A DNA stretch of 64,000 bases from contig CBFGKC010000006.1 in assembly GCA_965649265.1 (NCBI GenBank), forward strand, positions 114,975-178,974. Direction: 5' to 3'. Positions 11,732-25,017 of the stretch are shown piece after piece. Within the stretch, counting starts at the first letter, position 1, and each line of letters starts with the position of its first letter. The DNA is from a candidate division WOR-3 bacterium (lineage in GTDB: Bacteria > Hydrothermota > Tepidihabitantia > B3-TA06). The notes beneath the pieces are model-generated. The model ran no database searches, was not told the DNA's origin, and saw only the letters and a program-made list of their open reading frames with translations. The position numbers and the translations under genes were made by a program.

Positions 11732-13069
11732 TCATTTCACAATTATAACCTTGCAGATTCGGCAAGGATCTACATCGGGGACTATGAAATACACGCCTGC
11801 CTCGTGTCCTTTACCCCATTTGAAAGTGCCTTGTGTTTGAGATGGTTTTATTTTGTCCACCTTGCGGCCGGATGCGTCGTATACATCGGCTTGAAAACCG
11901 CTGGGATGTCCCGAGTATTGCAGCACTATCTCCTTACCGATGGGGGAGAGGAGTTGCCAGGCTGTTATTTGCTCGACAGCAGGTTTTTCCGCGACTCCTA
12001 CGTTGCCAAGGGAATCGGTCTTAATAAGACAGATTTTGTAAATACCGCTTTCCGAGGTCATAACCTCTCCGGTAATAATAAAACCCTTATCCTGGGTTTC
12101 CTGGACACTGAATCCTCTGTTCCATGAGTTTTCGCCGAATTGTTTTGTCCACTGAAAGTTTCCATTTTTATCTAACTTAAGGAGGAGCAGAAAAGTTCCG
12201 TGATCGGTCCTGAAAATTCCGGTTGCGGCTAAACCGCCGTCATATGTCTCATCACAATCATAGGCCTGCAGAGAATCTCTTGCAAAAGACCAGACTGTAT
12301 CCCCCAGTTCATCGAGCTTGAGTATCCATAAAGCCTGCCCGCCGTTTTTCCAGCCTGCAACATAGTACCCACCTTCGGTCTGGTGTATGGAGTAGCCCTT
12401 TTCTCCTTCCGTGGACAAGCCATGGCTTTTTGCCCAAAGGAGATTGCCCTTATCATCGGTCTTGACAACGCCCAGATGAAAGGCTGAATCTCTGCCTGTT
12501 ACAATAAAACCGTTATCTTCAGTTTTTGCGATACACAAACCTTCCAGCCCATACTGGTGCGTCCAGACCGTATCGCCGTTCTTGTCGAACTTCATGATAG
12601 TCCAGGGGGTGCCTGTTGCAGCATATCCGTCTGCCGTTTCGATTACACATTCGCCATAAGAAAAACCACTATTATTGCCAATCGCCTGAGTCCATAAAGT
12701 GTCGCCATAAGGGTTCGTTTTTATCAACCACAAATGAACCGTCTGCCAGCCACCCGCACAACTACCCACGAGCGTATATCCTTCGTCAGTTGTTTGGATG
12801 ACAGAAAGGCCTTTACCGCCGTAAGCTTTTGAATCCTTGTATGTTTTAGACCATTGGATTTCGCCCAAAGGATCGGTTTTCAGGAGGCAGGTTCCGGCTA
12901 CTATATATCCTCCATCCTTTGTTTGCTTGACGGAGTATCCTGAATTGAAATCAGCGTCACCGTAAGTTTTCATCCAGCCGGCAACACTCGACAGAGGGAA
13001 TATCAGCAACCCAAGAACCGTCAAGACTATGTTTGTCAGAGGATTAAACACTAACCTCGATTTTTCCAT
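11732..13069 (-). CDS. Secreted beta-propeller-like tandem-repeat protein with T9SS CTD (paralog of 2652..4340)
   Basis: There is a signal/TM (LTNIVLTVLGLLIFPLSSVAG). The repeats are DGGYIVAG ... GDTLWTQAIG / GDTVWTHQYG / GNLLWAKSHG. The C-terminus is GVYFIVPDVDPCRICKVIIVK. Confidence 0.6.
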   Translation of the reverse strand: MEKSRLVFNPLTNIVLTVLGLLIFPLSSVAGWMKTYGDADFNSGYSVKQTKDGGYIVAGTCLLKTDPLGEIQWSKTYKDSKAYGGKGLSVIQTTDEGYTLVGSCAGGWQTVHLWLIKTNPYGDTLWTQAIGNNSGFSYGECVIETADGYAATGTPWTIMKFDKNGDTVWTHQYGLEGLCIAKTEDNGFIVTGRDSAFHLGVVKTDDKGNLLWAKSHGLSTEGEKGYSIHQTEGGYYVAGWKNGGQALWILKLDELGDTVWSFARDSLQAYDCDETYDGGLAATGIFRTDHGTFLLLLKLDKNGNFQWTKQFGENSWNRGFSVQETQDKGFIITGEVMTSESGIYKICLIKTDSLGNVGVAEKPAVEQITAWQLLSPIGKEIVLQYSGHPSGFQADVYDASGRKVDKIKPSQTQGTFKWGKGHEAGVYFIVPDVDPCRICKVIIVK

Positions 13070-13157: not shown

Positions 13158-14453
13158 CTAGCTCGCGTAAGGGAACAGGAACTTTAGCGATGCGCCGAAG
13201 CGGTAGAACTTTTCGGTATACAAATCTTCCTCCAGCCCGAACTTCTTGGACCAGGTCGCGTACTCGAAGGAACTGTTGAGGACAACATACGAAGAGATAG
13301 GTATGCCTATCCCTGCGGTTACACCTTTGAGATACTTTGGTGTGTGCTGGCCTGAGTCGGCCTGCGGGATCGCGTCAAAGTAGAAACCTCCGCGTACTAT
13401 CACAGGCGATACGAATTCGGCACCGAAGCGGAACGTGGAACCGTCGTTCACGCCGAGCCTTGAGCCTAAGGCCTCGACGGCAGTGAAGAAGCGAGTCTGG
13501 AATTCACCTGAAAGATTGAGGAAAGGCAAAATCTTCGACCGCAAACCGACGGTGAAGACGCCGGGCAACATGTAGGCTGTTGAGTCATCTACCTGGTGTT
13601 TTATCTGAATTCCATTAGTGTCCAATACAAGCGTTGAATCAAACCAAGTAATCTCCGTTCCGGAAAGGCTTTCCTCGCCCCATCTCCAGCCCCAGGCTAT
13701 AGGTGATCGATATGAGAAGCTTATACCCAACTGGGGAAAGGGTTCCGCAAACGCGCCTACAGTGAAAAAATTTCCTGTCGAGGAGAAGTTACCTTTGTAT
13801 CTTATTCGTGTTTCATCGTATATACCGGAGGTGTCCCCGTCTTCAATCTCAAGATCATCGTAAACGCTTACTTCGTAATAGCTGCTTTTGAGCTTCTCTA
13901 GTGCGCTGAAGCTGAAGGCCAGACCAATGGAGTAATTGTCCAGTATGCTCATTGCGATCGCCGGGGTTATTACCCTTAAACCGCCGGTTGCGGTATCGGT
14001 CATCTTATAACTTCCGTTTTCGAATTCCCAGTTAATCTCCCTGTTGACGGCATTATCAATATGTAGGTGATAGCCGAAAGCAGGATAGAGCACAGCGTAT
14101 TCCGCGATCTGGATGGGCAAAGCTAAAGAGACGTGTGTGAACTGGGGGATGGTGTTATATTTTGTGTAGTATTGCTCTTCTTGTATCTCTTCCTGGCCGA
14201 AACCCCAGTAAAGCCTTCCGCCGATCTCCATTTCAAGATAATCAGCGTCCAGCAAAAGAGCAGGATTGAAAAAGATGGCGTTCGAACCCTGAGCGCTGAC
14301 CGATCCGGTATTGCCCATGCCGCAGGAACGGACATCCACGACGGTGGGATTAATTGCGTCAACCATAAATGCATAAACGGTTGAATTTACGAAAAATAGC
14401 GGTAACAATACGACCAAAGTCTTAAAGGTCGCTTTTTTTTCAAATCCTGACAT
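13158..14453 (-). CDS. Outer-membrane beta-barrel protein, FadL/OmpP1-like superfamily (possibly PorV/PorQ-like)
   Basis: The ORF is trimmed to the ATG at 14453 (MSGFEKKATFKTLVVLLPLFFVNSTVYA signal). The mature N-terminus, VRSCGMGNTGSVSAQGSNAIFFNPALL, fits the R-x-x-G-M-G-x-x-G ... NPA motif of FadL-like barrels. It has an aromatic-rich C-terminus (FLFPYAS). Confidence 0.4.
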   Translation of the reverse strand: MSGFEKKATFKTLVVLLPLFFVNSTVYAFMVDAINPTVVDVRSCGMGNTGSVSAQGSNAIFFNPALLLDADYLEMEIGGRLYWGFGQEEIQEEQYYTKYNTIPQFTHVSLALPIQIAEYAVLYPAFGYHLHIDNAVNREINWEFENGSYKMTDTATGGLRVITPAIAMSILDNYSIGLAFSFSALEKLKSSYYEVSVYDDLEIEDGDTSGIYDETRIRYKGNFSSTGNFFTVGAFAEPFPQLGISFSYRSPIAWGWRWGEESLSGTEITWFDSTLVLDTNGIQIKHQVDDSTAYMLPGVFTVGLRSKILPFLNLSGEFQTRFFTAVEALGSRLGVNDGSTFRFGAEFVSPVIVRGGFYFDAIPQADSGQHTPKYLKGVTAGIGIPISSYVVLNSSFEYATWSKKFGLEEDLYTEKFYRFGASLKFLFPYAS

Positions 14454-14670
14454 GCACATACCTACCTCCAGGCTTGCCTTTTTTGTATCTATAGTGTATA
14501 CCGAAACATGTGATTTGTCAAGCCCTTCTGTGAGCTTCTGGTCATCTAAGTCAAGCCAAAAAAACATCTGTAACCGTCAGCCCTCTCAGTCATATCCCGG
14601 CATTGGTCTTACAGACTGAGTTAATTGGAATAATATCCAAATCACAAGCAGAGAAAGATGTGTTACTGAG

Positions 14671-15040: not shown

Positions 15041-15096
15041 GTGTTACGGGGGGGGGACGGGTGTTACGGGTGGGTGTTACGGGTGGCGTTACGGGG
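15041..15096. repeat. Short tandem repeat (GTGTTACGGG x4, the reverse complement of CCCGTAACAC) overlapping the rSAM stop codon
   Basis: The sequence reads gtgttacggg ggggggacgg gtgttacggg tgggtgttacggg tggcgttacgggg. The rSAM stop codon (TAA at 15089..15091, minus strand) lies inside the last unit. The same unit recurs at 48003..48081 and 58790..58830. Confidence 0.6.
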
Positions 15097-16111
15097 CAGA
15101 GAGAATCTGGGCGACGAATGGTTCGGTACCACCGCATTCATTTGCGGCGGCCCGGCACGATGCCCGGCATGTCTCGATATCCTTGCACCCTCTGCACATC
15201 TCCGGTATATCCTCAATGAACTCCTTCCTTTCGGCGGAATCCATCAGCTCCCAGAAACTTTTTTCCCTGATATTCCCGAGAACGAGCGGGGTGTGGTTGC
15301 ACGGACGCAGATTGCCTATGGAATCCACCACCGGGTAGCACTCCTCGGTTCCCGCCGAGCAGAAACCGAAGCCGAGATGCGGGTAGTTCTTAATATCCAC
15401 GAGGCAGCAGGGGATAGGTATCGATACGCTTATGGGGAACCTCTTTTCTACCGCGAACCGCTCGGCTGTGTCGAGCATGAAGAGCACATCCTGGGGGGAG
15501 GGGGAGAGTTCGTCGAGATTCTCGAGTCCCCTTCCGCCGGGATTGAAGCGGTTGAGCATCACGCCGTGCGTACCGAGGCTCCTTGCGAACTCCAGGGTTT
15601 CCCAGAGCCTTGCGAGGTTGATCTTTGTGACGATCAGGGCGACTACAATCTTCGCCTTTGTCGAAAGCACGGCCTCTATCCCTCGAACTGATTTCTCGAA
15701 GCTTCCACTGCATCCCTGCAGGTATTCGTGCTCGTCTGGCCTGTCCGATAGAAGCTGGATCTCGAAAAGAGAGATTCCAGCCCTCACAAGCGTCTTTGCG
15801 AGTTTCTTGTCGAGCGCCTGGCCGTTCGTGATGATGTTGAGCTGAGCGCCCGAGAGTGCGGCCTGAAGCGAGATGTCCACGAGATCGGGTCTCAGAGTCG
15901 GTTCTCCGCCGCTTATCGTGAAGAGTGACGGCTTCGTCTCTTTTAAGAGCTTTGCCAGCATCTCGCGGGTTTCCTTTGGGTTCAAGTCCTCATGTACAGT
16001 TTCCGGATGCTTATGCCAGATGTTGTAGCAGAAGCGGCATTTGAGATTACATCTTTGGGTTACTTCGAAGATGAGGATTTTCTGGCGGCGGTCCCTTAAC
16101 GAATCGTTCAT
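15089..16111 (-). CDS. Radical SAM enzyme with C-terminal SPASM-type auxiliary cluster domain (peptide/protein-modifying maturase class)
   Basis: The N-terminal CNLKCRFCYN carries the CX3CX2C motif. The C-terminal Cys cluster is PCCLVD...FCSAGTEEC...RPCNH...CRGCKDIETCRASCRAAANECGG. It starts 1 nt after the stop of paralog 16113..16688, and an AAGGAAG Shine-Dalgarno site sits upstream. Confidence 0.75.
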   Translation of the reverse strand: MNDSLRDRRQKILIFEVTQRCNLKCRFCYNIWHKHPETVHEDLNPKETREMLAKLLKETKPSLFTISGGEPTLRPDLVDISLQAALSGAQLNIITNGQALDKKLAKTLVRAGISLFEIQLLSDRPDEHEYLQGCSGSFEKSVRGIEAVLSTKAKIVVALIVTKINLARLWETLEFARSLGTHGVMLNRFNPGGRGLENLDELSPSPQDVLFMLDTAERFAVEKRFPISVSIPIPCCLVDIKNYPHLGFGFCSAGTEECYPVVDSIGNLRPCNHTPLVLGNIREKSFWELMDSAERKEFIEDIPEMCRGCKDIETCRASCRAAANECGGTEPFVAQILSAP

Positions 16112-16112
16112 G

Positions 16113-16688
16113 CTAATTATCTTCCTTTTTCTCAGTTCCTGACGTATCCGGTTTGCTGACTATTAGTTTTGCCAGGTGAGAGGTTTCAGAATTAAGCGAG
16201 GATATTTTCATGAAGACCCTGACGGTTTCAGGCGGAAGGCCTCGAACATCCAGCCTCGCTTCCAGAAGTTCCGCGGAGCTGTCGAATTTCCCGTCGACCG
16301 GGTCGAGCGATATAATATAAGGTTCAGCATCCGGTCGGCTAACCGCGGCCGTAGCACTGTATATTATGTCACCAGGTATTTCTGTTCTTCCAAGAACCTT
16401 TATAGTTACGGAATCCGCACCCCTGGTCGGGTTGGGATAGATCAAAAGCGAGTCGACAATCTCATCTGCAGGCGGAGAAAAATGAACATAGTAGCAAGTA
16501 ATCGCCGGTTCATAGTGACGGTGTGTCAGACATCCTATGAGCGAAAGTAAGCCTCCTAGAAGAACCAGTTTAAAATGTCTGGTTGTTCTTGAAAATCGGT
16601 TCTTGCTCTCTAAAACCGAAAGAAGATGGAATACTAAACCTCCCGCTCGGCTCAACAACCCTGAGAGCCTATTACGCAACTTGATCAC
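16113..16688 (-). CDS. Array paralog 12/12: single-pass membrane protein with TCY/PNPTxGADSV ectodomain
   Basis: The architecture is MIKLRNRLSGLLSRAGGLVFHLLSVLE, then a TM helix (LVLLGGLLSLIGCL), then ITCYY...PNPTRGADSVTIKV. It is the last gene before the rSAM gene. Confidence 0.6.
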   Translation of the reverse strand: MIKLRNRLSGLLSRAGGLVFHLLSVLESKNRFSRTTRHFKLVLLGGLLSLIGCLTHRHYEPAITCYYVHFSPPADEIVDSLLIYPNPTRGADSVTIKVLGRTEIPGDIIYSATAAVSRPDAEPYIISLDPVDGKFDSSAELLEARLDVRGLPPETVRVFMKISSLNSETSHLAKLIVSKPDTSGTEKKEDN

Positions 16689-16717
16689 TGGTCAATATAC
16701 GGCTGATAGGGATGGTG

Positions 16718-17278
16718 TCAATCCTTTTCTTCCGTAGAGTCAGGGTCCGTCACGACAAGCATTAGTTGTTGCGTATACATGCCTGCCTGGGAGGTGTAGA
16801 AGGTCAGGTCCACCCATGTTGTTTCGGAGACAAGCCCTCCGATATAGAACCTCCCCTGAACGGCCTCAAGCGTGTCCGAAAAATCTCCGTCAACCGCATC
16901 GAGAGGCGTAAGAAGCGTGTCTGATGCCAGTTTTATCGTCGCGCCGGTAATGATGTTGCCTTCTATTCCCGGATCGTAAACCTTGGCCGTCGCCTTCACC
17001 GTTACCGTATCCGCGCCTTTTGTAGGATTCGGCGTAATAGCAGCCTCGGTGACTACCACGGGGTCAATTATGGCCATGTCGTAGCAGGTTGCTATGGGTG
17101 TCTCCGGCTGTGCCCTGAGCCAGCCTGCAACAGTCAGAACGAGACCTAAAACGAAGAGCTTGGTCCACCTCGCCGTCTTTTTAATAGTTCCCTCCTCCTC
17201 CCAGCTTGAAAGAACCGGAAGGAGTTTTGCTCCTATCCTCGTTATGAATGATGAAAGCGCGTTTCGAGTCTTAATCAT
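16718..17278 (-). CDS. Array paralog 11/12
   Basis: It reads MIKTRNALSSFITRIGAKLLPVLSSWEEEG, then a TM helix, then IATCYD...PNPTKGADTVTVKATAKV...DGDFSDTLEAVQGRFYIGGL...TDPDSTEEKD. Confidence 0.6.
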   Translation of the reverse strand: MIKTRNALSSFITRIGAKLLPVLSSWEEEGTIKKTARWTKLFVLGLVLTVAGWLRAQPETPIATCYDMAIIDPVVVTEAAITPNPTKGADTVTVKATAKVYDPGIEGNIITGATIKLASDTLLTPLDAVDGDFSDTLEAVQGRFYIGGLVSETTWVDLTFYTSQAGMYTQQLMLVVTDPDSTEEKD

Positions 17279-17307
17279 GTTTTACTGTACCTCACTTTTC
17301 CGGACTG

Positions 17308-17865
17308 TCAATCTTTTTCTGTCGAATCGGGTTCAGAAATCACAAGCTGCAGCCCTTCAACATTTATGCCTGCCTGCGGGGTGTAGAATGTGATGTAAAC
17401 CCGGGTGGTTTCGGGTCCAAGCCCGGTGACGCACAGACGGCCTTCAACTGTCTCGAGCGTGTCCGAAAACTTGCCGTCGACCGCACGGAGAGGGACAATA
17501 ACCGTATCGCCGCCAATTCTTGCATCCGCTCCGGAGATTATATTGCCTTCAAGTTTCGAATCGTAGACCCTTGCGGTCGCTCTCACCGTAACCGAGTCGG
17601 CGCCATTTGTGGGGTTAGGCGTAATAGCAGCCTCAGTGATTATTACCGGTTCAATGACGACCGGATCATAACAGGTCGCATACCCCCTGGTCTCTTGGGC
17701 CGAGAGCCAGCCTAGTAAGCCCAGGATGAAACCCAGAATGTAGATTTTTGCAAATCTCGCGAATCCCTTAAGAACCCCTTCCTCCTCCCACCTTGAGAGA
17801 AGCGGGAAGAGTTTTGCTCCAACATTGCTTACAAACGCCGCGAGCGAGCTGCGAGCTTTGGCCAT
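17308..17865 (-). CDS. Array paralog 10/12
   Basis: It reads MAKARSSLAAFVSNVGAKLFPLLSRWEEEG, then a TM helix, then YATCYD...PNPTNGADSVTVRATARV...DGKFSDTLETVEGRL...SEPDSTEKD. Confidence 0.6.
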   Translation of the reverse strand: MAKARSSLAAFVSNVGAKLFPLLSRWEEEGVLKGFARFAKIYILGFILGLLGWLSAQETRGYATCYDPVVIEPVIITEAAITPNPTNGADSVTVRATARVYDSKLEGNIISGADARIGGDTVIVPLRAVDGKFSDTLETVEGRLCVTGLGPETTRVYITFYTPQAGINVEGLQLVISEPDSTEKD

Positions 17866-17929
17866 AAAATTCCTCCTTGACTGCGACTACTCCTGTTATA
17901 CAGTTGCAGGTGCAATAAATTCCCTTAAC

Positions 17930-18469
17930 CTATTCGGTTATCTCGATATCTGAGCTGTCTTCGATTACCTTGTTCTTGCTTGTAGATATTCTGACATGGA
18001 CTTTTGCGTTTGCGGTATCGATACCCCTGATGCTTAACTTCGCCGAGATTTCCTCGTATGAACCGTCAAAAGCACTATCCGCAGCCAGCATCTCCACCGT
18101 GTCGGAATTTGCACCTTTCCCGGTAATGAAACACTGTGCCGATTTTACATAATTGTCCTTGGAGCCTGGGATTATATTGGCTCTGGCTTTGACCATAACC
18201 GAGTCGGCTCCAGCCGTAGGATCAGGCAAAACCTCGATATTATGAATGGGGGGAGGTACAGGCTCGTAGCACGTGACCGGGCAGCAGGCGGTCGAGCCGG
18301 CCGCTCCGGAAAGACCTAATCCTGAAACGAGTGCACTCAGGAATGAAAGCTTCATCCACCTTGCAAGCTTGGGTAGTACCCTGCGTTCCTCGCATCTTGA
18401 GTAGAAGTCAAAAAGCGCAAAACCGGCTTTCCTGAGAATCTCGAAAACAATGTGTCTTGCCTGAGCCAT
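17930..18469 (-). CDS. Array paralog 9/12
   Basis: The ORF is trimmed to the ATG at 18469 (MAQARHIVFEILRKAGFALFDFYSRCEERRVLP). A TM helix follows, then VTCYEP...PDPTAGADSVMVKARA. Confidence 0.55.
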   Translation of the reverse strand: MAQARHIVFEILRKAGFALFDFYSRCEERRVLPKLARWMKLSFLSALVSGLGLSGAAGSTACCPVTCYEPVPPPIHNIEVLPDPTAGADSVMVKARANIIPGSKDNYVKSAQCFITGKGANSDTVEMLAADSAFDGSYEEISAKLSIRGIDTANAKVHVRISTSKNKVIEDSSDIEITE

Positions 18470-18476
18470 GATACTG

Positions 18477-19016
18477 CTATTCTGATTCCGTGATGTACAA
18501 ATCCACTGTCGTGTAATCTCGCTCCCCTTTATTGGAGGTGGCCTCAATGTTTACACTGCAGGTATCGCCTGCGGCAAGATTGCCTACGTATAATCGAGCT
18601 TCTACGTCTTTCATTCCGTATGGATCGGTTTTCGTGACAATCATCGTTATGGTGTCGTCATTAAGAACACATATCACCTTATCCACATAATCTTCTTCTA
18701 TGCTTACTCCATTGGGGACATTTGCGCTCGCTTCAACGGTTACTGAATCTGAGCCTGACGTCGGATTAGGGGTTATTGAGCAGGTTGCGATTTGAGGTTT
18801 CGGGTACTCCATCGGTGCGTAACACGTTATGCAGTTGAGCATGCTGGCCGCACTCAATGCGGTAATTCCTGTCACGAAGGCTCCGAGGAAGGTCGTTTTT
18901 ACCCACCTGGAAGCCCTTGGCAGTATCCCGCAATCCTCACAGTGGGAGAAGAAGTTGAAGAGTGATGTTCCCATTCTCCTCAAGGTTTCAAAGAAGAGGT
19001 AGCGGCTACTGGCCAT
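18477..19016 (-). CDS. Array paralog 8/12
   Basis: It reads MASSRYLFFETLRRMGTSLFNFFSHCEDCGILPRASRWVKTTFLGAFVTGITAL, then ITCYAP...PNPTSGSDSVTVEASA. The N-terminal 50 aa are near-identical to paralog 7. Confidence 0.55.
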   Translation of the reverse strand: MASSRYLFFETLRRMGTSLFNFFSHCEDCGILPRASRWVKTTFLGAFVTGITALSAASMLNCITCYAPMEYPKPQIATCSITPNPTSGSDSVTVEASANVPNGVSIEEDYVDKVICVLNDDTITMIVTKTDPYGMKDVEARLYVGNLAAGDTCSVNIEATSNKGERDYTTVDLYITESE

Positions 19017-19031
19017 TGTGCCTCCGGTGAT

Positions 19032-19547
19032 TTATTCAGTTATCTCGAGGTCGATTGTTGTATCCGCTCGCTGGTCTTCATTGTCGTATTCTGTGATTTG
19101 TATGGTTACTGTATCGGGCTCGAGGTCTCCTATATACAACTTCGCGTTCACGGCATATTCATTCGTGTAGTCTCCAGGCTCTATCTTCATGACGGTGGTG
19201 TCATTCTCGAGGATACATATCACCTTTTTCAATTCAATCCCGTTATCGGCAATTGCCTTGGCGGAAACGCTAACAGTGTCGGCCCCTGCCGTAGGATTTG
19301 GTGCCACGGAGGCGTTTTCGATTCGAGGTGATTCAATTGGCAAGTAGCAGCCGGTGGGGATACAGTTGATCATGCTGGCCGCGCTCAACGCGGTAATTCC
19401 TGTCACGAAGGCTCCGAGGAAGGTCGTTTTTACCCACCTGGAAGCCCTTGGCAGTACCCCGCATTCCTCACAGCGAGAGAAGAAGTTAAAGAGTGAGGTG
19501 CCTATCCTCCTCAAGGATTCAAAGAAAAAAAACTTTGTTCTAGCCAT
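19032..19547 (-). CDS. Array paralog 7/12
   Basis: The ORF is trimmed to the ATG at 19547 (MARTKFFFFESLRRIGTSLFNFFSRCEECGVLPRASRWVKTTFLGAFVTGITAL). A TM helix follows, then PTGCYLP...PNPTAGADTVSVSAKA. Confidence 0.55.
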   Translation of the reverse strand: MARTKFFFFESLRRIGTSLFNFFSRCEECGVLPRASRWVKTTFLGAFVTGITALSAASMINCIPTGCYLPIESPRIENASVAPNPTAGADTVSVSAKAIADNGIELKKVICILENDTTVMKIEPGDYTNEYAVNAKLYIGDLEPDTVTIQITEYDNEDQRADTTIDLEITE

Positions 19548-19629
19548 GGTTCCTCCTTTCACTGTATTAAATATAATCAACTTGCTCGGATTGTCAATCC
19601 ATGAAAATCACCTGAAATCCTGGCAGGTG

Positions 19630-20157
19630 TTATTTATCAGTAACGCGGAGAACGGTCGAGCCTATGCCCCAGCCTGAGGTTTTTGAATCGACTTTTACAA
19701 AGACCTGAGTGCTGTCCGTTTTGATTTTCTTCACGTATATGCGCCCGATGAGTTCCTCATTATTCTCGTCGAATGCGCCGTCCCTCGCTATCATCCGGAT
19801 GGTGTCTCCATCGACTATGCACTGGGCTGAGGCTATTATTTCGAGATCGCTTGCGTTTTCAAGTCTGGCTTTGGCGGTAACGGTCACCGAGTCGGCGCCT
19901 TTCGTCGGGTTAGGCTTGACTACTATCTCCGAAACCCTGGGATATACGGCCACAGGTTCGTAGCAGGTCACGAGCCCCTGATCCAGCGGAGGTTTTTTGG
20001 CGCATGCCGCAATGATGGTCAGCCACGCTCCAGCAAGCGCGAGCTTGAGCCAGCGTGATATCCTTGGCAGAGCGCTTCGTTCCTCACACCCGGTCAGAAT
20101 GGAGAACAGTGCCGAGCCTGTTCTCCTCAAAAACCTTGACAGTAACTCTCGCTTCAT
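19630..20157 (-). CDS. Array paralog 6/12
   Basis: It reads MKRELLSRFLRRTGSALFSILTGCEERSALPRISRWLKLALAGAWLTIIAACA, then VTCYEP...PNPTKGADSVTVTAKA. Its start overlaps the upstream stop by 4 nt (20154..20157). Confidence 0.6.
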   Translation of the reverse strand: MKRELLSRFLRRTGSALFSILTGCEERSALPRISRWLKLALAGAWLTIIAACAKKPPLDQGLVTCYEPVAVYPRVSEIVVKPNPTKGADSVTVTAKARLENASDLEIIASAQCIVDGDTIRMIARDGAFDENNEELIGRIYVKKIKTDSTQVFVKVDSKTSGWGIGSTVLRVTDK

Positions 20158-20726
20158 AACGAGTCCTTTTCAGTGATAAATAGCGGTAATGAAACCAGTG
20201 CTTCTTCACCCTTGGAAGTGGCCGCGTGCACGTAGACGAAGGTGGTCCCGGGTTTAAGACCCGCGACGCTGATGCGTGCCTCAATCATCTCGACGGTATC
20301 CGAGAAGCGGCCGTCCACAGGGTACATCCGGATTTTCCTTGACGTATCAATGGCCATTACGAGCCAAGCATCCGACACGTAATTGTTCTCAAGGCCAGGT
20401 TCCAGCACCCTTGCGGTGCCCGTTATCTTGACAGTGTGCACGCCCCTTGTCGGGTTCGGGCTTGCCTGAACTACTGAGATTTCGGGATCCATCCTTCTCA
20501 TCATGTAACATGTGTGGACAGGACCGTCGCCGTCTCCTCCTGGTCCGGGTCTTGCCTTTTTCCCGCACGAGGCTATCAGGGCGACAACGAGCCCGAGTAG
20601 CGAAACCTTCAAAAAGCGCGCGGTCTTTGAAAATATTGGAGTATCCTGGCATCTCGATAGCGCATTAAACACCAGATTACCTGCATTTCTGAGAACTGCA
20701 ATCAAGCTCTTTCTCATCTTTGCCAT
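20154..20726 (-). CDS. Array paralog 5/12
   Basis: It reads MAKMRKSLIAVLRNAGNLVFNALSRCQDTP, then a TM helix, then a Gly/Asp-rich insert (PGPGGDGDGP), then VHTCYMM...PNPTRGVHTVKITGTARV. Confidence 0.6.
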   Translation of the reverse strand: MAKMRKSLIAVLRNAGNLVFNALSRCQDTPIFSKTARFLKVSLLGLVVALIASCGKKARPGPGGDGDGPVHTCYMMRRMDPEISVVQASPNPTRGVHTVKITGTARVLEPGLENNYVSDAWLVMAIDTSRKIRMYPVDGRFSDTVEMIEARISVAGLKPGTTFVYVHAATSKGEEALVSLPLFITEKDSL

Positions 20727-20745
20727 TCTGCCTCTCCTATCTCGT

Positions 20746-21288
20746 TTAATCTGGTTCAGTAATCACCAGTTCTAAAGATTCAATTTCAATTTGACCGGAA
20801 GAATTTTCTACCTCTAAGTATATCCATGTCGTTTCCGGCTCAAGGTCTCCAACGTAAAGTCGGCCGACTATTCTCTCCGAAGCGGCGTCGAATTTCCCGT
20901 CAATCGCCCGCATGGGGTAATATATTGTATCTCCATCCATTCTCATGCGGGCTGAGCTTATCGTGCTTTCGCCGCTGTAGTGATCGCTAATCTTTGCCGT
21001 GGCCTTGACGGTTACCGAATCGGCGCCCCTTGTAGGGTTAGGCCTTACGGAAAGTTTGGATAGTTCTATGAGGGGAGGGGGGGCGGGCTTGTAGCACATT
21101 ATGACGTCTTCCTTTGCTTCGAGCGAGAGAGCGCTCACGAGTGCCACGAAAAATCCGAGGAATGTGAGCTTCAACCATCTTGCCGCCCCGGGGAGGATGC
21201 GGCGTTCCTCGAATCCGGAAAACGTTCCGAAAAGCCTTCCGCCAATCCTTGCAAAAAAGTCTGCCAGGCGTTTTCTGAGTTCAGGCAT
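20746..21288 (-). CDS. Array paralog 4/12
   Basis: It reads MPELRKRLADFFARIGGRLFGTFSGFEERRILPGAARWLKLTFLGFFVALVSAL, then IMCYKP...PNPTRGADSVTVKATAKI. Confidence 0.6.
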   Translation of the reverse strand: MPELRKRLADFFARIGGRLFGTFSGFEERRILPGAARWLKLTFLGFFVALVSALSLEAKEDVIMCYKPAPPPLIELSKLSVRPNPTRGADSVTVKATAKISDHYSGESTISSARMRMDGDTIYYPMRAIDGKFDAASERIVGRLYVGDLEPETTWIYLEVENSSGQIEIESLELVITEPD

Positions 21289-21289
21289 A

Positions 21290-21859
21290 TCAATCCTCCT
21301 TATTCTCGTTGCTGTCCGCTTCCGGTGCGGTGATGATTAATTGCCTCCAGGTGCTTTCCGCGTTGCCTGAGTTTGTCCTCACCACTATGTAAATCCAGGT
21401 GGTCTCCGGCTTGTGATCCCCGACGTAGAGACGGCCTTCGACTGTTTCAAGGGTATCGCCGAACTTACCGTCAACCGCTTTCATCGGATATAAAAGGGTA
21501 TCTCCGGTAAGCTGCATAATTGCTTCGGAAACAGCGGTGTCACCTGAGCAATAATATGCAGATTCCAATTTTGCGGTTGCCTTGACTGTAACGGTGTCTT
21601 TTCCTGCAGTGGGGTTCGGTGTTGCCGAGACATCGAAGATACTTAAGTGAGGTTCCTCAATAGGCACGTAGCACATGATGATATCGTCGTCCGCCTTGAG
21701 CGCTGGCGCGCCCAGCAGGGTTACCAGCAATCCCAGAACCGAAAGCTTTAGCCATCTTGCCGGTCTGCGTAGGATACCGCGTTCCTCCAATCCGGACAGT
21801 ATCCCGAATAAGGAGCCGCCTATCCGTGAAGAGATGCGGGCCAGTAAGCCTTTTGTCAT
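21290..21859 (-). CDS. Array paralog 3/12
   Basis: It reads MTKGLLARISSRIGGSLFGILSGLEERGILRRPARWLKLSVLGLLVTLLGAPAL, then IMCYVP...PNPTAGKDTVTVKATAKL. Confidence 0.6.
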   Translation of the reverse strand: MTKGLLARISSRIGGSLFGILSGLEERGILRRPARWLKLSVLGLLVTLLGAPALKADDDIIMCYVPIEEPHLSIFDVSATPNPTAGKDTVTVKATAKLESAYYCSGDTAVSEAIMQLTGDTLLYPMKAVDGKFGDTLETVEGRLYVGDHKPETTWIYIVVRTNSGNAESTWRQLIITAPEADSNENKED

Positions 21860-22435
21860 CTACTCCTCCCTGGCAGCGCTCGAATCAGCTGCGAGCGAAT
21901 CAATCCTTGTTACGGTGTAGGACTGCCAAAGAATCTCTTCATCTTCTCTGGAACTCGTCACGTCTATAAAGAACCAGTGGGTGCCGGTATCCAGGTCGCC
22001 TGTGTAAAACATGGCCTCAAGAACCTCAAGAGTGTCGTTAAGCTTGCCGTCCACGGCCTTCATGGGAATCCTCAGGGTGTCACGCTGCCTGGAAAGCCAG
22101 GCGTTTCGGATGTAATTGTTCTCAAGGGTCGGGTCCAGAACTTTTGCAGTTACCTTTACTTTTACCGAGTCCGCTCCTCGAGTCGGATTTGGTGTGATGG
22201 ACACATCCGAAATCTTTACCTCCGGCATCCTCATGGCTACGTAACAGGTCTTAATTGTTTCTACCTCGGCGGAAAGTGCTCCGATGGCTGCGGTAAGAAA
22301 TCCAAGCAGTGAGAGCTTTAACCAGCGCGAAGCGCTGGGCACAATCCCGCGCTCTTCGAATCGCGACAGGAGTGAAAAGAGACCTCCTCCCAGCACTTCA
22401 AGAATCCTTACGACGAACCCTTTCGTTCTCGCCAC
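21860..22435 (-). CDS. Array paralog 2/12 (GTG start)
   Basis: The track ORF 21860..22654 carries a non-homologous 73-aa N-terminal extension. The paralog alignment starts at the GTG at 22435 (VARTKGFVVRILEVLGGGLFSLLSRFEERGIVP), preceded by GGTGGAG. The start lies 1 nt after the stop of paralog 1. The ectodomain reads KTCYVA...PNPTRGADSVKVKVTAKV. Confidence 0.55.
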   Translation of the reverse strand: MARTKGFVVRILEVLGGGLFSLLSRFEERGIVPSASRWLKLSLLGFLTAAIGALSAEVETIKTCYVAMRMPEVKISDVSITPNPTRGADSVKVKVTAKVLDPTLENNYIRNAWLSRQRDTLRIPMKAVDGKLNDTLEVLEAMFYTGDLDTGTHWFFIDVTSSREDEEILWQSYTVTRIDSLAADSSAAREE

Positions 22436-22436
22436 G

Positions 22437-23009
22437 TCACTCCACCTTTGTCGAATCAGTCCTGATAGAATCAGGCTCCGAGACTTCAAAATAAAACCAG
22501 CTCGCTTCCAGTGCATCCTGGGATGTCTGGACGAGCATTGAGATCGAGTACTGGCCCGGTTCAAGATTTCCAACGTAAACCGTACCCTCGAGCACCTCGA
22601 GCGTGTCGTCCATCTTGCCGTCAAGTGCTTTGACCTTGAACCTCGTCGTATCACCGTCCCAGGAGAGCCAGGCGTCCTTTATGAAGTTATCCTTGATATT
22701 CGAGTACATCACCTTGGCCTGGGCCTTCACTTTCACCGAATCCGCTCCCTTCGTGGTATCAGGGGTTACGGACTTCTCTGTTATGATGACGTCGGGAATC
22801 CTCGCGACGATGTAGCAGGTGACTTCCGGATCCCTGGCTTGAAGTGAGAGTGTCGCGACTAGCGAGGCTATGATTCCCAGGGTCGAGATCTTTATCCATC
22901 TCGCGGCACGCGGCATGACGCCTTTTTCTTCTATCATTGTCAGAAAATGGAAAATTGCATCTCCCAGTTTCCCTAACAGCCTGGATAAGAGGTTGCGTGT
23001 CTTGGCCAT
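22437..23009 (-). CDS. Array paralog 1/12 (first gene of operon)
   Basis: The ORF is trimmed to the ATG at 23009 (MAKTRNLLSRLLGKLGDAIFHFLTMIEEKGVMPRAARWIKISTLGIIASLVATL), preceded by AAAGGAG. The ectodomain reads VTCYIV...PDTTKGADSVKVKAQAKV. Confidence 0.6.
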   Translation of the reverse strand: MAKTRNLLSRLLGKLGDAIFHFLTMIEEKGVMPRAARWIKISTLGIIASLVATLSLQARDPEVTCYIVARIPDVIITEKSVTPDTTKGADSVKVKAQAKVMYSNIKDNFIKDAWLSWDGDTTRFKVKALDGKMDDTLEVLEGTVYVGNLEPGQYSISMLVQTSQDALEASWFYFEVSEPDSIRTDSTKVE

Positions 23010-23059
23010 CGTCGCTCCTTTAATTCTCAATACAAGAAAACATCTCAAATATTCCCCAC

Positions 23060-23088
23060 AATATAAGCCCCAAAAGACAGGTGTCAAG
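23060..23088 (-). promoter_or_regulatory. Candidate sigma70 promoter for the 12-paralog/rSAM operon
   Basis: On the minus strand it reads TTGACA-N16/17-TATATT (the plus strand shows tgtcaa at 23083..23088 and aatata at 23060..23065). It lies about 50 nt upstream of the first paralog's start. Confidence 0.4.
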
Positions 23089-23111: not shown

Positions 23112-23140
23112 TTGACAAAGATGCAGCATTTCTCTATAAT
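23112..23140 (+). promoter_or_regulatory. Consensus sigma70 promoter (TTGACA-17-TATAAT)
   Basis: ttgaca is at 23112..23117, a 17-nt spacer follows, and tataat is at 23135..23140. It is divergent from the array promoter and upstream of the gene at 23225. Confidence 0.6.
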
Positions 23141-23224: not shown

Positions 23225-24547
23225 ATGCATCCATTTCTGGTTTTCTGTTGTTGTTTGATTTCATCTTTGACTTGGAATAGACATTATGATTTTCGGTTTA
23301 GTGACCACTGTAGCGCGCTTGTGCCGGTAGAGGACGGTTACGTGATTACGGGTAACACTATGCGGTATCTATTCGTGCAGAAGGTCGATACTCTGGGAAA
23401 TCAAGTCGGTTACAAAGAGTGGTATAAGGCCGAAGGTTATGACATAGAGAGAATGTCTGATGGTTATATTATTCTTGCGTACAAAGACGAATCTCCCAGG
23501 CACGGGATTTGGTTGGTAAGAACAGATAGCGATTTTGACACACTTTGGAGTAGAAGCTATGGATATAATAATGGAATTATGGCAAAATCTCACTCATTTG
23601 ATTTAACAGATGACAGTGGTTTAGTGATGGTCGGTGAGTGCGGCACGGGTCTTATTGTCTTTAAAACCGATAGTCTTGGTGATAGCTCCTGGGTAAAAAA
23701 ATATTTTCAGTCTGTCTCGATGCGCGCTGGGAATTTTATTGAAGAAACATCTGATCAAGGTTTTATTGTTACGGGAGTTTGTGAGGAACGTTTTTTTGCA
23801 CTGAAATTGGATGAGAATGGGGATTCCTTATGGTGTAAGAAATATTTTGAGGAAAAAACAGGTGAAGGTCTTTGTATAAGAGAAACCTCCGACAAAGGCT
23901 TTATAGTATTGGCTAGGATAAGGTATGGTAGTTCGGATTCCTTGCTTCTCATCAAGACGGATTCTTTTGGAAACGCTTTGTGGGTGAGAAAATTCAATTC
24001 GATGTCTCATTGGACTAGAACATGTTATATTGAGGTTCTGGATGATGGTTATGTTATGATTTCAGGGTCACAAGAAGGTCCATTAGTCAGGAAATTTGAC
24101 GAGTCTGGGAATGTCCTTTGGACAAAGACCTACAATCGTAATTTCGGTTATTTTTCCGGATTTGAAGGCACATGTATTCATTACACATCGGATAAAGGTT
24201 TTATTATTGGCACCGCTTTGGATATATCTCCATACGGATCAGACCTCTGGCTGGTGAAAACCGACAGCCTAGGAAACACGGTTCCTCTTGAATCCGTGAT
24301 AGAGCCAACGGAGACTGCCGTTAGCGAAGTTCATCTGAGTGTTTTGAATTCAGCTGTTGCATATTCCTTACCTGCTGGCGAGCGTTGTTTGTTGAAAATC
24401 TATGATGTTAGTGGAGTATTGAAAAAAGGAGAAATTGTTTGTGGCCGCGGAGAGATGCGACTAAAAGAATTCCCTGTAGGGGTTTATTTCGCTGAGTTAC
24501 AGTTCATGCGAAGTGCTGAAATCAAAAAGGTATTAGTTTTTCCCTAG
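23225..24547 (+). CDS. Secreted beta-propeller-like repeat protein with T9SS CTD (paralog of 2652..4340 and 11732..13069)
   Basis: The repeats are SDGYIILAYKD ... GDSSWVKKYF / GDSLWCKKYF / GNALWVRKFN / GNVLWTKTYN. The C-terminus is VGVYFAELQFMRSAEIKKVLVFP. An AGGGAGAG Shine-Dalgarno site sits upstream. Confidence 0.55.
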   Translation: MHPFLVFCCCLISSLTWNRHYDFRFSDHCSALVPVEDGYVITGNTMRYLFVQKVDTLGNQVGYKEWYKAEGYDIERMSDGYIILAYKDESPRHGIWLVRTDSDFDTLWSRSYGYNNGIMAKSHSFDLTDDSGLVMVGECGTGLIVFKTDSLGDSSWVKKYFQSVSMRAGNFIEETSDQGFIVTGVCEERFFALKLDENGDSLWCKKYFEEKTGEGLCIRETSDKGFIVLARIRYGSSDSLLLIKTDSFGNALWVRKFNSMSHWTRTCYIEVLDDGYVMISGSQEGPLVRKFDESGNVLWTKTYNRNFGYFSGFEGTCIHYTSDKGFIIGTALDISPYGSDLWLVKTDSLGNTVPLESVIEPTETAVSEVHLSVLNSAVAYSLPAGERCLLKIYDVSGVLKKGEIVCGRGEMRLKEFPVGVYFAELQFMRSAEIKKVLVFP

Positions 24548-24576: not shown

Positions 24577-25017
24577 TTGTTCAAGTACAATCCCCGCGTG
24601 AAGCAGCTCTTATCGGACTGGCGGGTGCTTTCGGCGATCGCGATACTCGGATGGGGGACCTGGGGCATACTCTCAAAGATTGCCCTGAAACAGGTTGACT
24701 GGCGGGTCATGATGCTGATTACGTCCGTAGCCGCCCTTCCTCTGGCTTTCATACTCGGGATTCCGAATTTCGACTGGAAGTTTAACCGCTACATCCTTCT
24801 CGCTTTTTTTGCAGGAATCGGAGCCGAGGTCGCGACGCTCTCCTTCAACCGCGCGATTCAAAAGGGCGGACCCGCGAACGTCGTGGTCCCACTCACCTCA
24901 CAGTACGTGCTCGTCATAGTGCTTTTTTCGACCATTTTCCTAAAAGAGCCTATAACGTGGCAGAGAATCGTCGGCATCGTTGCCGCGCTCATAGCAATTG
25001 TGATGCTTTCGCTGTGA
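24577..25017 (+). CDS. Small DMT/EamA-like membrane protein (4 TM)
   Basis: Hydrophobic segments are visible (VLSAIAILGWGTWGIL, VMMLITSVAALPLAFILG, YILLAFFAGIGAEV, YVLVIVLFSTIFLKEPITWQRIVGIVAALIAIVMLSL). The last segment fits the EamA C-terminal pattern. Confidence 0.5.
   Translation: MFKYNPRVKQLLSDWRVLSAIAILGWGTWGILSKIALKQVDWRVMMLITSVAALPLAFILGIPNFDWKFNRYILLAFFAGIGAEVATLSFNRAIQKGGPANVVVPLTSQYVLVIVLFSTIFLKEPITWQRIVGIVAALIAIVMLSL

Follow-up and report, generated by a model that had tools for sequence, protein, structure and literature searches.

The DNA analysed here, which we call the window, is a stretch of 64,000 nt from a candidate division WOR-3 bacterium (B3-TA06; assembly GCA_965649265.1, contig CBFGKC010000006.1, positions 114,975-178,974 of the forward strand). 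At 15089-23009 on the minus strand it carries twelve paralogous genes and, at their 3' end, the gene of a radical S-adenosylmethionine (SAM)/SPASM enzyme, all arranged head to tail (Table 1). This is the arrangement described in the original prediction for this stretch, and the list of open reading frames (ORFs), the alignment of the encoded proteins, and the Pfam scores of the enzyme bear it out. We argue below that the array is one form of a cassette found in several phyla, in which the enzyme would modify a Cys-Tyr pair in the proteins encoded beside it. Coordinates are given after trimming each paralog ORF to the conserved M-A-K/R start; the raw ORFs span 16113-23087, and on three of them the trimming removed a spurious N-terminal extension. 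The trimmed genes encode proteins of 171-191 aa, and most are preceded by a GGAGG-like ribosome-binding site. Successive spacings from paralog 1 to paralog 12 are 1, 0, 1, 19, -4 (ATGA), 82, 15, 7, 64, 29, and 29 nt, with a further 1 nt between paralog 12 and the enzyme gene; the predicted spacing of 1-30 nt or an ATGA overlap holds for most gaps and fails for two (64 and 82 nt).

Table 1. Genes and promoter-like sites of the array (window coordinates)
Feature	Position	Strand	Details
Paralog 1	22437..23009	-	190 aa; motif EVTCYIV
Paralog 2	21860..22435	-	191 aa; GTG start; motif IKTCYVA
Paralog 3	21290..21859	-	189 aa; motif IIMCYVP
Paralog 4	20746..21288	-	180 aa; motif VIMCYKP
Paralog 5	20154..20726	-	190 aa; motif VHTCYMM; linker longer
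Paralog 6	19630..20157	-	175 aa; motif LVTCYEP; start overlaps the end of paralog 5 by 4 nt (ATGA)
Paralog 7	19032..19547	-	171 aa; motif PTGCYLP; 82-nt gap upstream with promoter-like site
Paralog 8	18477..19016	-	179 aa; motif CITCYAP
Paralog 9	17930..18469	-	179 aa; motif PVTCYEP
Paralog 10	17308..17865	-	185 aa; motif YATCYDP; copy modelled with AlphaFold2
Paralog 11	16718..17278	-	186 aa; motif IATCYDM
Paralog 12	16113..16688	-	191 aa; GTG start; motif AITCYYV; ends 1 nt before the enzyme gene
Radical SAM/SPASM enzyme (proposed maturase)	15089..16111	-	340 aa
Promoter-like site upstream of paralog 1	23060..23087	-	TTGACA-16-TATATT; 11/12 matches
Internal promoter-like site, in the 82-nt gap before paralog 7	19570..19597	-	TTGACA-16-TATATT
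Internal promoter-like site, before paralog 12	16694..16721	-	TTGACA-16-TATATT
Internal promoter-like site, before paralog 11	17284..17311	-	TTGACA-16-TACAGT

The hidden Markov model (HMM) search proposed as a check on the enzyme places it above the Pfam cut-offs of both PF04055 (74.5 bits, cut-off 29.5) and PF13186 (30.6 bits, cut-off 21.5). The CxxxCxxC motif, which binds the SAM-cleaving 4Fe-4S cluster, is present as C21-x3-C25-x2-C28 and is invariant in an alignment of 20 homologues. SPASM proteins carry a seven-cysteine motif, CX9-15GX4C...CX2CX5CX3C...C, that serves two auxiliary clusters; in the enzyme it reads C251-x14-G266-x4-C271, C306-x2-C309-x5-C315-x3-C319, and C326, with these positions invariant or nearly so in the same alignment, where two additional Cys residues, C229 and C236, are conserved upstream of it. 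On both counts, the enzyme belongs to the radical SAM superfamily and, within it, to the SPASM subfamily. Its radical SAM core starts at residue 16 of the protein in the Pfam match, which leaves no room for an N-terminal peptide-recognition (RRE) domain. The enzyme reaches no NCBIfam cut-off, all hits falling far below: AhbD scores 111.8 bits against a cut-off of 500 and matches residues 13-208 only, followed by GeoRSP (102 against 400), NirJ2 (99 against 500), TIGR04133 (83 against 425), PqqE (81.7 against 381), MftC (75.5 against 265), StsB (70 against 625), and PapB (57 against 340), and the 25 best hits do not include the family of the anaerobic sulfatase-maturating enzyme (anSME). The solved structures nearest by sequence are anSME 4k37 (E = 8e-10, in the SPASM region only), SkfB, the Tes lipid synthase 7tol (E = 1e-7, in the core only), and PqqE, while the PADLOC match covers the generic viperin core only.

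Paralogs 2-12 are 30-42% identical to the first copy, and alignment of all twelve reproduces the conserved blocks described earlier, with the consensus MAxxRxxLxxxLxRxGxxLFxxLSxxEExGxLPRxARWxKL...TCYxP...TPNPTxGADSVTVKATA...AVDGKFxDTxExxEGRLYVG...ITEPD. Eleven residues are invariant (M1, G16, R37, K40, C65, Y66, P83, T86, G88, V92, and D130). The T-C-Y that the original prediction called invariant is so for the Cys and the Tyr, found in all twelve copies, and not for the Thr, which precedes C65 in nine copies and gives way to Met in two and to Gly in one. In an AlphaFold2 model of paralog 10 (47-sequence alignment, mean predicted local distance difference test [pLDDT] 86), a helix at residues 2-29 and a second at 33-56 are followed by a beta-sandwich at 74-176 (pLDDT >90) with six strands of at least 3 residues; the 17-residue linker at 57-73, which holds C65-Y66, is modelled as unstructured with a pLDDT of 58-69. 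The first 40 residues of the paralogs are positively charged (net +3 to +8); of the two helices, the first is amphipathic and the second moderately hydrophobic, with Kyte-Doolittle 19-residue maxima of 1.35-1.92. The single transmembrane helix of the original prediction is present as a hydrophobic helix, whose hydropathy lies on the border between that of membrane anchors and that of signal-peptide cores. This hydrophobic helix, taken with the positively charged first 40 residues, makes a topology with the N terminus inside and the ectodomain outside likely.

A further check was whether the paralogs fall into a well-characterised family. None matches in Pfam (even at E = 0.1), NCBIfam, or PADLOC, and the ectodomain alone resembles generic bacterial immunoglobulin (Ig)-like repeats. 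In an exhaustive profile search of 1.84 billion representatives, the full architecture of the paralogs occurs in only ~50, and the profile of the ectodomain (positions 70-180) matches tandem repeats in multi-domain proteins of 600-4000 aa that also carry Big_7, Big_12, Big_13, PKD, and fn3 domains. A Foldseek search with the paralog model against the PDB gives E-set/Ig matches with E ~1e-4 and a TM-score of ~0.4; a function suggested by the individual matches (NPC2, sulfite oxidase C-terminal domain, SoxYZ) was considered and dropped, as at this TM-score they are generic Ig/E-set folds only. Given the sandwich in the model and the profile matches to tandem Ig-like repeats, the predicted ectodomain is, at the level of the fold, one bacterial Ig-like module. 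Repeats of the Big_7/Big_12/Big_13 type share its Ig/E-set sandwich and its profile similarity; they sit in large multi-domain surface proteins, whereas each paralog is a single domain fused to a helical hairpin and a motif linker. The distinctive part of the family is this N-terminal hairpin with the motif-bearing linker.

A word-indexed search found the paralog family in only 43 clusters, all from assemblies labelled TA06, WOR-3, or just "bacterium". In every related contig with enough flank to judge, the family lies directly upstream of an orthologous enzyme gene, and the enzyme orthologues of this clade are 67-95% identical to that of the window. The concern that the adjacency might be coincidental, which gene neighbourhoods in other genomes were to settle, can thus be set aside. 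Beyond these orthologues the identity of the enzyme falls abruptly to ~44% (39-44%), in a family of several hundred proteins with homologues in 179 species genomes. We read 80 loci around enzyme homologues of species-representative genomes among these 179 relatives, 78 of them evaluable for the ORF upstream of the enzyme gene; they span at least eight phyla: WOR-3/Stahlbacteria, Planctomycetota, Chloroflexota, Armatimonadota, Myxococcota, Pseudomonadota, Kiritimatiellia, and Cyanobacteriota.

In the first three distant loci, the upstream genes encode unrelated-looking proteins with the strings LCYDMAVIVP, ITCYEPSMMP, ATCYIPRLFIP, or GSCYETASLP, whose counterparts in the window are TCYDMAIIDP and TCYEPVAVYP. 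Across the evaluable loci, the ORF ending just upstream of the enzyme gene contains [TSML]CY in 70 of 78 cases and CY with any residue at the -1 position in 74, and one more locus has its motif protein two genes upstream; within two genes upstream, ~75 of the 78 encode a protein with 1-4 copies of x-[T/S]-C-Y-x-[P/M]. The density of the motif is 3.17 per 1000 aa in the upstream ORFs versus 0.12 in the remaining six-frame ORFs of these loci, a 27-fold enrichment. In the motif profile, which was built from contexts collected on CY and so has C and Y fixed by construction, the -1 position is T in 72% and S in 11%, and the +3 position is P in 67% and M in 15%. The motif-bearing proteins range from 96 to 872 aa with 1-4 motifs each, and the gap between their genes and the enzyme gene is mostly 0-30 nt. 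A reverse test from two substrate-type proteins found the enzyme gene as the next gene, overlapping by 4 nt. Two or more motif-protein genes stand in tandem in 19 of 83 loci, the extreme being a planctomycete with six genes and nine motifs. All-against-all clustering of the neighbourhoods of the 80 loci found no other conserved neighbour gene. On this genomic evidence, the cassette is a widespread two-gene unit of an enzyme and its putative substrate, not a peculiarity of the window array. At one locus (L094 4687-5735, from a long-read assembly) the enzyme gene is split into ORFs of 108 and 241 aa, probably by a frameshift or an assembly error rather than as a real pseudogene.

The motif is carried by three scaffolds: the Ig type of WOR-3/TA06, a helical type with a twin-arginine translocation (TAT) signal in Anaerolineae, and a helical type with ~177-aa repeats in Planctomycetota. 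The Anaerolineae type is ~230 aa long, and its members fall into at least 486 clusters, annotated throughout as hypothetical or TAT-signal proteins; its SRRDF[MI]K twin-arginine signal scores above the NCBIfam cut-off, and it has no Pfam domain. Its AlphaFold2 model is helical, with both motifs in low-confidence loops (residues 23-31 and 127-139), and a Foldseek search of the PDB with this model returned nothing below E = 0.8. The Planctomycete type has an N-terminal membrane helix, a canonical lipobox, and then helical repeats of ~177 aa with one motif per repeat. Seven substrate proteins of other phyla, searched against Pfam and NCBIfam, gave only the TAT signal and sub-threshold noise. In both AlphaFold2 models, that of paralog 10 and that of the Anaerolineae type, well-predicted elements flank a low-confidence loop that contains the motif. 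Since otherwise unrelated carriers share one motif, recognition would be of the motif rather than of a fold, and one loop motif in three unrelated scaffolds beside the same enzyme family is the signature of motif-directed protein modification.

Some features of the distant substrates stand apart from the motif. Besides it, the Anaerolineae type has invariant H88, H119, W57, and D176, as well as C24 at the end of the signal peptide in the context L-T-R-C; these residues could indicate a bound metal or cofactor. Three substrates of the Planctomycete/Armatimonadota types (L017 3616-4980, L033 4202-4987, and L023 4093-4944) start with a membrane helix that is followed by the basic loop KTGPGWKRK and by a second helix with a canonical lipobox at its end, and they match the NCBIfam model "lipo-invert" NF058595 weakly and below threshold (16-17 bits, cut-off 37). 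We considered an N-terminal hairpin common to the paralogs and the Planctomycete-type substrates ("...PRxARWxKL..." versus "...GPRWKRRL...") and rejected it, as an HMM of residues 1-60 gave no hit outside WOR-3/Stahlbacteria.

These observations lead us to a probability of about 0.8 that the Cys-Tyr pair of these proteins is modified by the enzyme while they are still in the cytoplasm, ahead of export. The original prediction had proposed that the enzyme modifies the paralogs, perhaps at the conserved Cys, and the cross-phylum linkage lends this proposal strong comparative support. In the mechanism we propose, a cytoplasmic radical SAM/SPASM enzyme would recognise x-[T/S/M]-C-Y-x-[P/M] in an unstructured loop of proteins bound for export and modify the invariant Cys-Tyr before the protein leaves the cytoplasm; the TAT signal of the Anaerolineae type would suit a protein completed in the cytoplasm and exported afterwards. 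In the window genome, the substrate gene would have been expanded to twelve co-oriented copies served by one 3' enzyme gene. Each copy is predicted to begin with a positively charged N-terminal amphipathic helix, followed by a moderately hydrophobic helix (a signal anchor or an uncleaved signal peptide), and to continue with a 17-residue juxtamembrane linker bearing the motif, one Ig-like beta-sandwich, and an acidic tail.

SPASM enzymes that act on Cys mostly make thioethers. This precedent, the invariance of both residues, and the enteropeptin ring, in which a radical SAM enzyme installs a six-membered thiomorpholine from Cys and N-methylornithine (PMC12395415), lead us to rank one reaction above all others: an intramolecular thioether in which the Cys sulfur is bonded to the alpha or beta carbon of the Tyr next to it. 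This is a tentative assignment that falls clearly short of even odds. The 5'-deoxyadenosyl radical would abstract the alpha or beta H of the Tyr, the neighbouring Cys sulfur would capture the resulting radical, and the product would be a small ring of the thiomorpholinone type that would rigidify the tether and proof it against proteases. An undescribed modification on Cys-Tyr, such as a covalent link from Cys or Tyr to a non-protein partner (a membrane lipid or a tetrapyrrole, for example) or a new redox cofactor derived from the pair, seems to us a rather unlikely outcome; if true, a whole class of exported envelope proteins in anaerobes of many phyla would carry this mark, and the twelve Ig-domain paralogs would be covalently tethered surface modules. 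The Ig-domain proteins themselves may serve in surface binding or in a structural role.

Several points weigh against modification of the Cys-Tyr pair as we propose it. The enzyme has no RRE domain to account for substrate binding, and with all NCBIfam scores far below their cut-offs it is not close to any characterised family; at such distances from characterised enzymes, the type of reaction is not predictable (PMC10288494). The modification, its site, and its timing are read from gene linkage and motif conservation only, and several reactions other than a thioether between neighbouring residues would also suit an invariant Cys-Tyr pair. Three loci (L050, L052, and L084), and perhaps a fourth (L082), have no motif protein within their 5-kb flanks.

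The main chemical rival to the thioether is formylglycine. In chemistry of the anSME type the Cys beta-carbon is oxidised, converting Cys to C-alpha-formylglycine, and an aldehyde in the linker could react with envelope amines. Among solved structures, anSME 4k37 matches the enzyme best in sequence, in the SPASM region, and the enzyme has the extra conserved C229 and C236 upstream of the SPASM motif, a feature shared with anSME. Like sulfatases, the substrates are full-size exported proteins and the cassette holds no protease or transporter, and the motif profile places a Pro shortly after the Cys. The motif itself, however, is C-Y-x-P and not the sulfatase C/S-x-P/A-x-R, it lies in a disordered loop and not in an active site, and the paralogs consist of an Ig-like domain and a linker with no sulfatase fold. 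Formylglycine chemistry has no role for the invariant Tyr, and with anSME absent from the 25 best NCBIfam hits we regard it as unlikely. It is still less plausible that the paralogs are precursors of a ribosomally synthesised and post-translationally modified peptide (RiPP), with the conserved N terminus as a leader and a short modified motif peptide that is excised and released, a reading we consider very unlikely. It would draw on several precursor genes standing ahead of one maturase, as is typical of such clusters, on the first 60 residues being as conserved as the remainder of the protein, and on SPASM enzymes being best known as peptide maturases (PMC10114670). Yet the 80 loci show no conserved protease, transporter, or recognition-element protein nearby, the substrates are 96-872 aa long with well-folded domains after the motif, and other phyla carry the motif mid-protein in helical proteins with ordinary TAT or lipoprotein signals. 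The paralog N-terminal region has no homologue outside the clade, and the Ig domains are under purifying selection (ratio of nonsynonymous to synonymous substitution rates, dN/dS, 0.05-0.21), so the Ig domain is not a disposable follower sequence.

Two further readings take the enzyme away from the Cys altogether. The enzyme could act on a cofactor or a lipid, in the manner of AhbD/NirJ or Gms, with the upstream proteins as its membrane partners or as inherited gene order. The top NCBIfam hits, AhbD and NirJ2, are tetrapyrrole enzymes, the lipid synthase 7tol is among the sequence hits, and within the TA06 clade the genes around the array keep their order; moreover, the Gms phylogeny is rooted with AhbD as outgroup, and Gms occurs in Planctomycetes (PMC11214058). 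The AhbD score is nevertheless 112 against a cut-off of 500, and no heme genes are adjacent, in contrast to the heme or heme d1 biosynthesis context expected of AhbD and NirJ. To enter the Gms search set a protein needed at least 400 aa, and in bacteria the gms genes are clustered with tes or mss (PMC11214058); with 340 aa and no conserved tes/mss neighbour, the window enzyme departs from these published criteria in length and gene context. The sole conserved neighbour is the motif protein, and inherited gene order cannot explain one motif, 27-fold enriched, in unrelated upstream proteins of eight phyla, which makes this reading highly improbable. Least credible of all, in our judgement, is that the conserved Cys is the lipid-attachment Cys of ordinary lipoproteins and the enzyme is irrelevant to it. 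The Cys does come after a signal-like hydrophobic helix, and three paralogs have the earlier helix strings LIASC, IIAAC, and LIGC; in most copies, however, 6-10 residues, often charged (e.g., SAEVETIKTC), separate the hydrophobic helix from the Cys, and the -1 residue is mostly Thr (T, M, or G in the paralogs). No L-[AS]-[GA]-C at the end of the hydrophobic core coincides with the invariant Cys in the paralogs, and Planctomycete substrates have a separate canonical lipobox with up to four C-Y motifs 100-700 residues further on. On the spacing in the paralogs and the mid-protein motifs elsewhere, we rejected the motif Cys as a lipobox Cys.

With modification of the Cys-Tyr pair before export as the preferred reading, the cassette is closest in its logic to two known systems, anSME with its sulfatases and QhpD with QhpC, and on motif, gene context, and curated score cut-offs it belongs to neither of them nor to the sacti- and ranthipeptide synthases. 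anSME is likewise a SPASM enzyme without a recognition domain that acts at a short Cys motif of a full-size, later-exported protein, with no protease or transporter in the module. Its motif C/S-x-P/A-x-R lies in the sulfatase active site, while C-Y-x-P lies here in a loop of Ig-like or helical proteins; the similarity of the window enzyme to anSME is weak and confined to the SPASM part, and its gene sits directly after the substrate genes. Neither a sulfatase domain nor the C/S-x-P/A-x-R motif was found, and all NCBIfam hits of the enzyme stay under their cut-offs. QhpD is a SPASM enzyme that makes Cys thioether cross-links in the QhpC subunit, which is afterwards exported to the periplasm; the cross-links run from Cys to distant Asp/Glu, alongside a quinone cofactor, in a defined enzyme complex, and the system has a dedicated protease and transporter. 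Like the enzyme as proposed here, QhpD acts on a full-size protein that is later exported, but no partner protease or transporter is conserved beside the cassette in the 80 loci.

The sactipeptide and ranthipeptide maturases, including the enteropeptin enzyme, are closest in possible chemistry, joining a Cys sulfur to a carbon of another residue, and the geometry of the enteropeptin thiomorpholine is what an invariant Cys-Tyr pair would allow. Those systems have short leader peptides, usually a recognition domain, and proteases and exporters, whereas here proteins of 96-872 aa are encoded in a two-gene cassette; the enzyme has no RRE domain, the substrates are long, and the 80 loci show no other conserved neighbour. 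Nor is it a member of the PqqE/MftC group, as it scores below those cut-offs and no PqqA/MftA-type peptide or PqqD/MftB neighbour is conserved in the 80 loci. In concept, the nearest pair of an enzyme and an exported protein is TIGR04133 ("rSAM_w_lipo"), which, to judge from the name of the model, is a SPASM enzyme habitually paired with a small exported lipoprotein; the window enzyme reaches 83 of the 425 bits required, and the paralogs match no NCBIfam model.

The original prediction knew of no described system with this arrangement, and that impression holds: neither partner is covered by a Pfam or NCBIfam family model, and a search of the full-text literature, motif strings included, returned no description of the pair, with most subscription journals outside its coverage. 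The enzyme and the Cys-Tyr proteins are a new family of SPASM enzyme and substrate in which the substrates are proteins rather than peptides. To our knowledge, full-size exported proteins have so far been known as substrates mainly for sulfatases and QhpC. Radical SAM/SPASM enzymes are a main source of new protein and peptide chemistry, and the target offered here, an invariant Cys-Tyr in a loop, is sharply delimited, with hundreds of substrate families annotated as hypothetical only. The radical SAM proteins characterised so far number only a few hundred (PMC10288494). The general cassette is of more interest than the twelve-gene array that revealed it; the array, for its part, provides natural sequence variation around the site that is useful for mapping recognition by the enzyme. 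Should the chemistry be new, it would add a post-translational modification to the envelope biology of little-known anaerobes such as Anaerolineae, Planctomycetota, and WOR-3/TA06.

Within the WOR-3/TA06/Stahlbacteria clade, the number of paralogs beside the enzyme gene is one (L004 TA06 B3, L005 WOR-3, L011 Stahlbacteria, and L014), at least eight (L012), nine (L001/L002), ~10 (L091), or ~11 (L092). The single-copy forms are closest to window copies 7 and 8 (49-54% identity for TA06/Stahlbacteria, 43-44% for WOR-3), and the ancestor of the clade probably had a single substrate gene. Gene order is colinear among the arrays of the window, L091, and L001, whose positional orthologues share 55-92% identity; for example, window copies 1, 2, and 3 are 79-81% identical to copies 1, 2, and 3 of L091, and window copy 4 is 85% identical to copy 3 of L001. 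Between positional orthologues, dN/dS is in the range given above for the Ig domain and 0.06-0.07 for the enzyme, and DNA identity between the copies of the window is low except in one stretch of 167 nt (paralogs 7 and 8). Colinearity, low dN/dS, and low inter-copy DNA identity together make the array old and stable rather than rapidly diversifying, and they rule out a hypervariable or contingency locus, which we had considered. As judged from these comparisons, the twelve-gene array is a lineage-specific expansion that is old, stable, subfunctionalised, and under purifying selection. The exceptional stretch comprises the N-terminal 167 nt of paralogs 8 and 7 (18829-18995 versus 19360-19526), which are 92% identical while the ectodomain parts have diverged and the whole proteins are 55% identical; this points to gene conversion or to a recent, partial duplication limited to the hairpin.

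The single TTGACA-N17-TATATT promoter of the original prediction could not be upheld. The site upstream of paralog 1 has a spacer of 16, and it is one of four comparable promoter-like sites of the array (Table 1), each with 10-11 of 12 matches. Because comparable sites lie inside the array, a single promoter is not shown; the array probably has more than one. No terminator-like site was found between its genes.

Several genes flank the array. A half-size EamA gene (24577..25017, plus strand, 146 aa, PF00892 54.8 bits) is transcribed divergently from the cassette, and tblastn finds half-size EamA genes (139-148 aa) in the same divergent arrangement upstream of the cassette in L001, L002, L004, L005, L006, L011, L013, L091, and L092; in 7-8 Anaerolineae loci, a full-size EamA gene (~302 aa) lies just downstream on the opposite strand (e.g., L022 6035-6943 and L093 5730-6638, both minus). 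EamA transporters move small metabolites. The adjacency could be local inherited gene order or a functional link, and membership of EamA in the system is uncertain. At L004, a 651-aa protein with an FGE-sulfatase (formylglycine-generating enzyme-like) domain is encoded two genes upstream of the cassette (7440-9395); as it is absent from the other loci, its presence there is probably coincidental. Directly downstream of the enzyme gene, 13158-14567 (minus strand) encodes a 469-aa protein without a Pfam match, which is not found beside single-copy cassettes and is kept at the same place in multi-copy arrays (92% identity in L091, 55% in L001/L002/L003, and 44% in L092). The array is further flanked by genes for two secreted-looking proteins without a Pfam hit, one of 440 aa (23225-24547, plus strand) and one of 445 aa (11732-13069, minus strand), which contain repeated "...DGGY/DEGY..." units and are related to each other (~29% by tblastn to the same loci). 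The 440-aa gene lies between the EamA gene and the array only in the window genome, and has a perfect TTGACA-17-TATAAT promoter match at 23112-23140.

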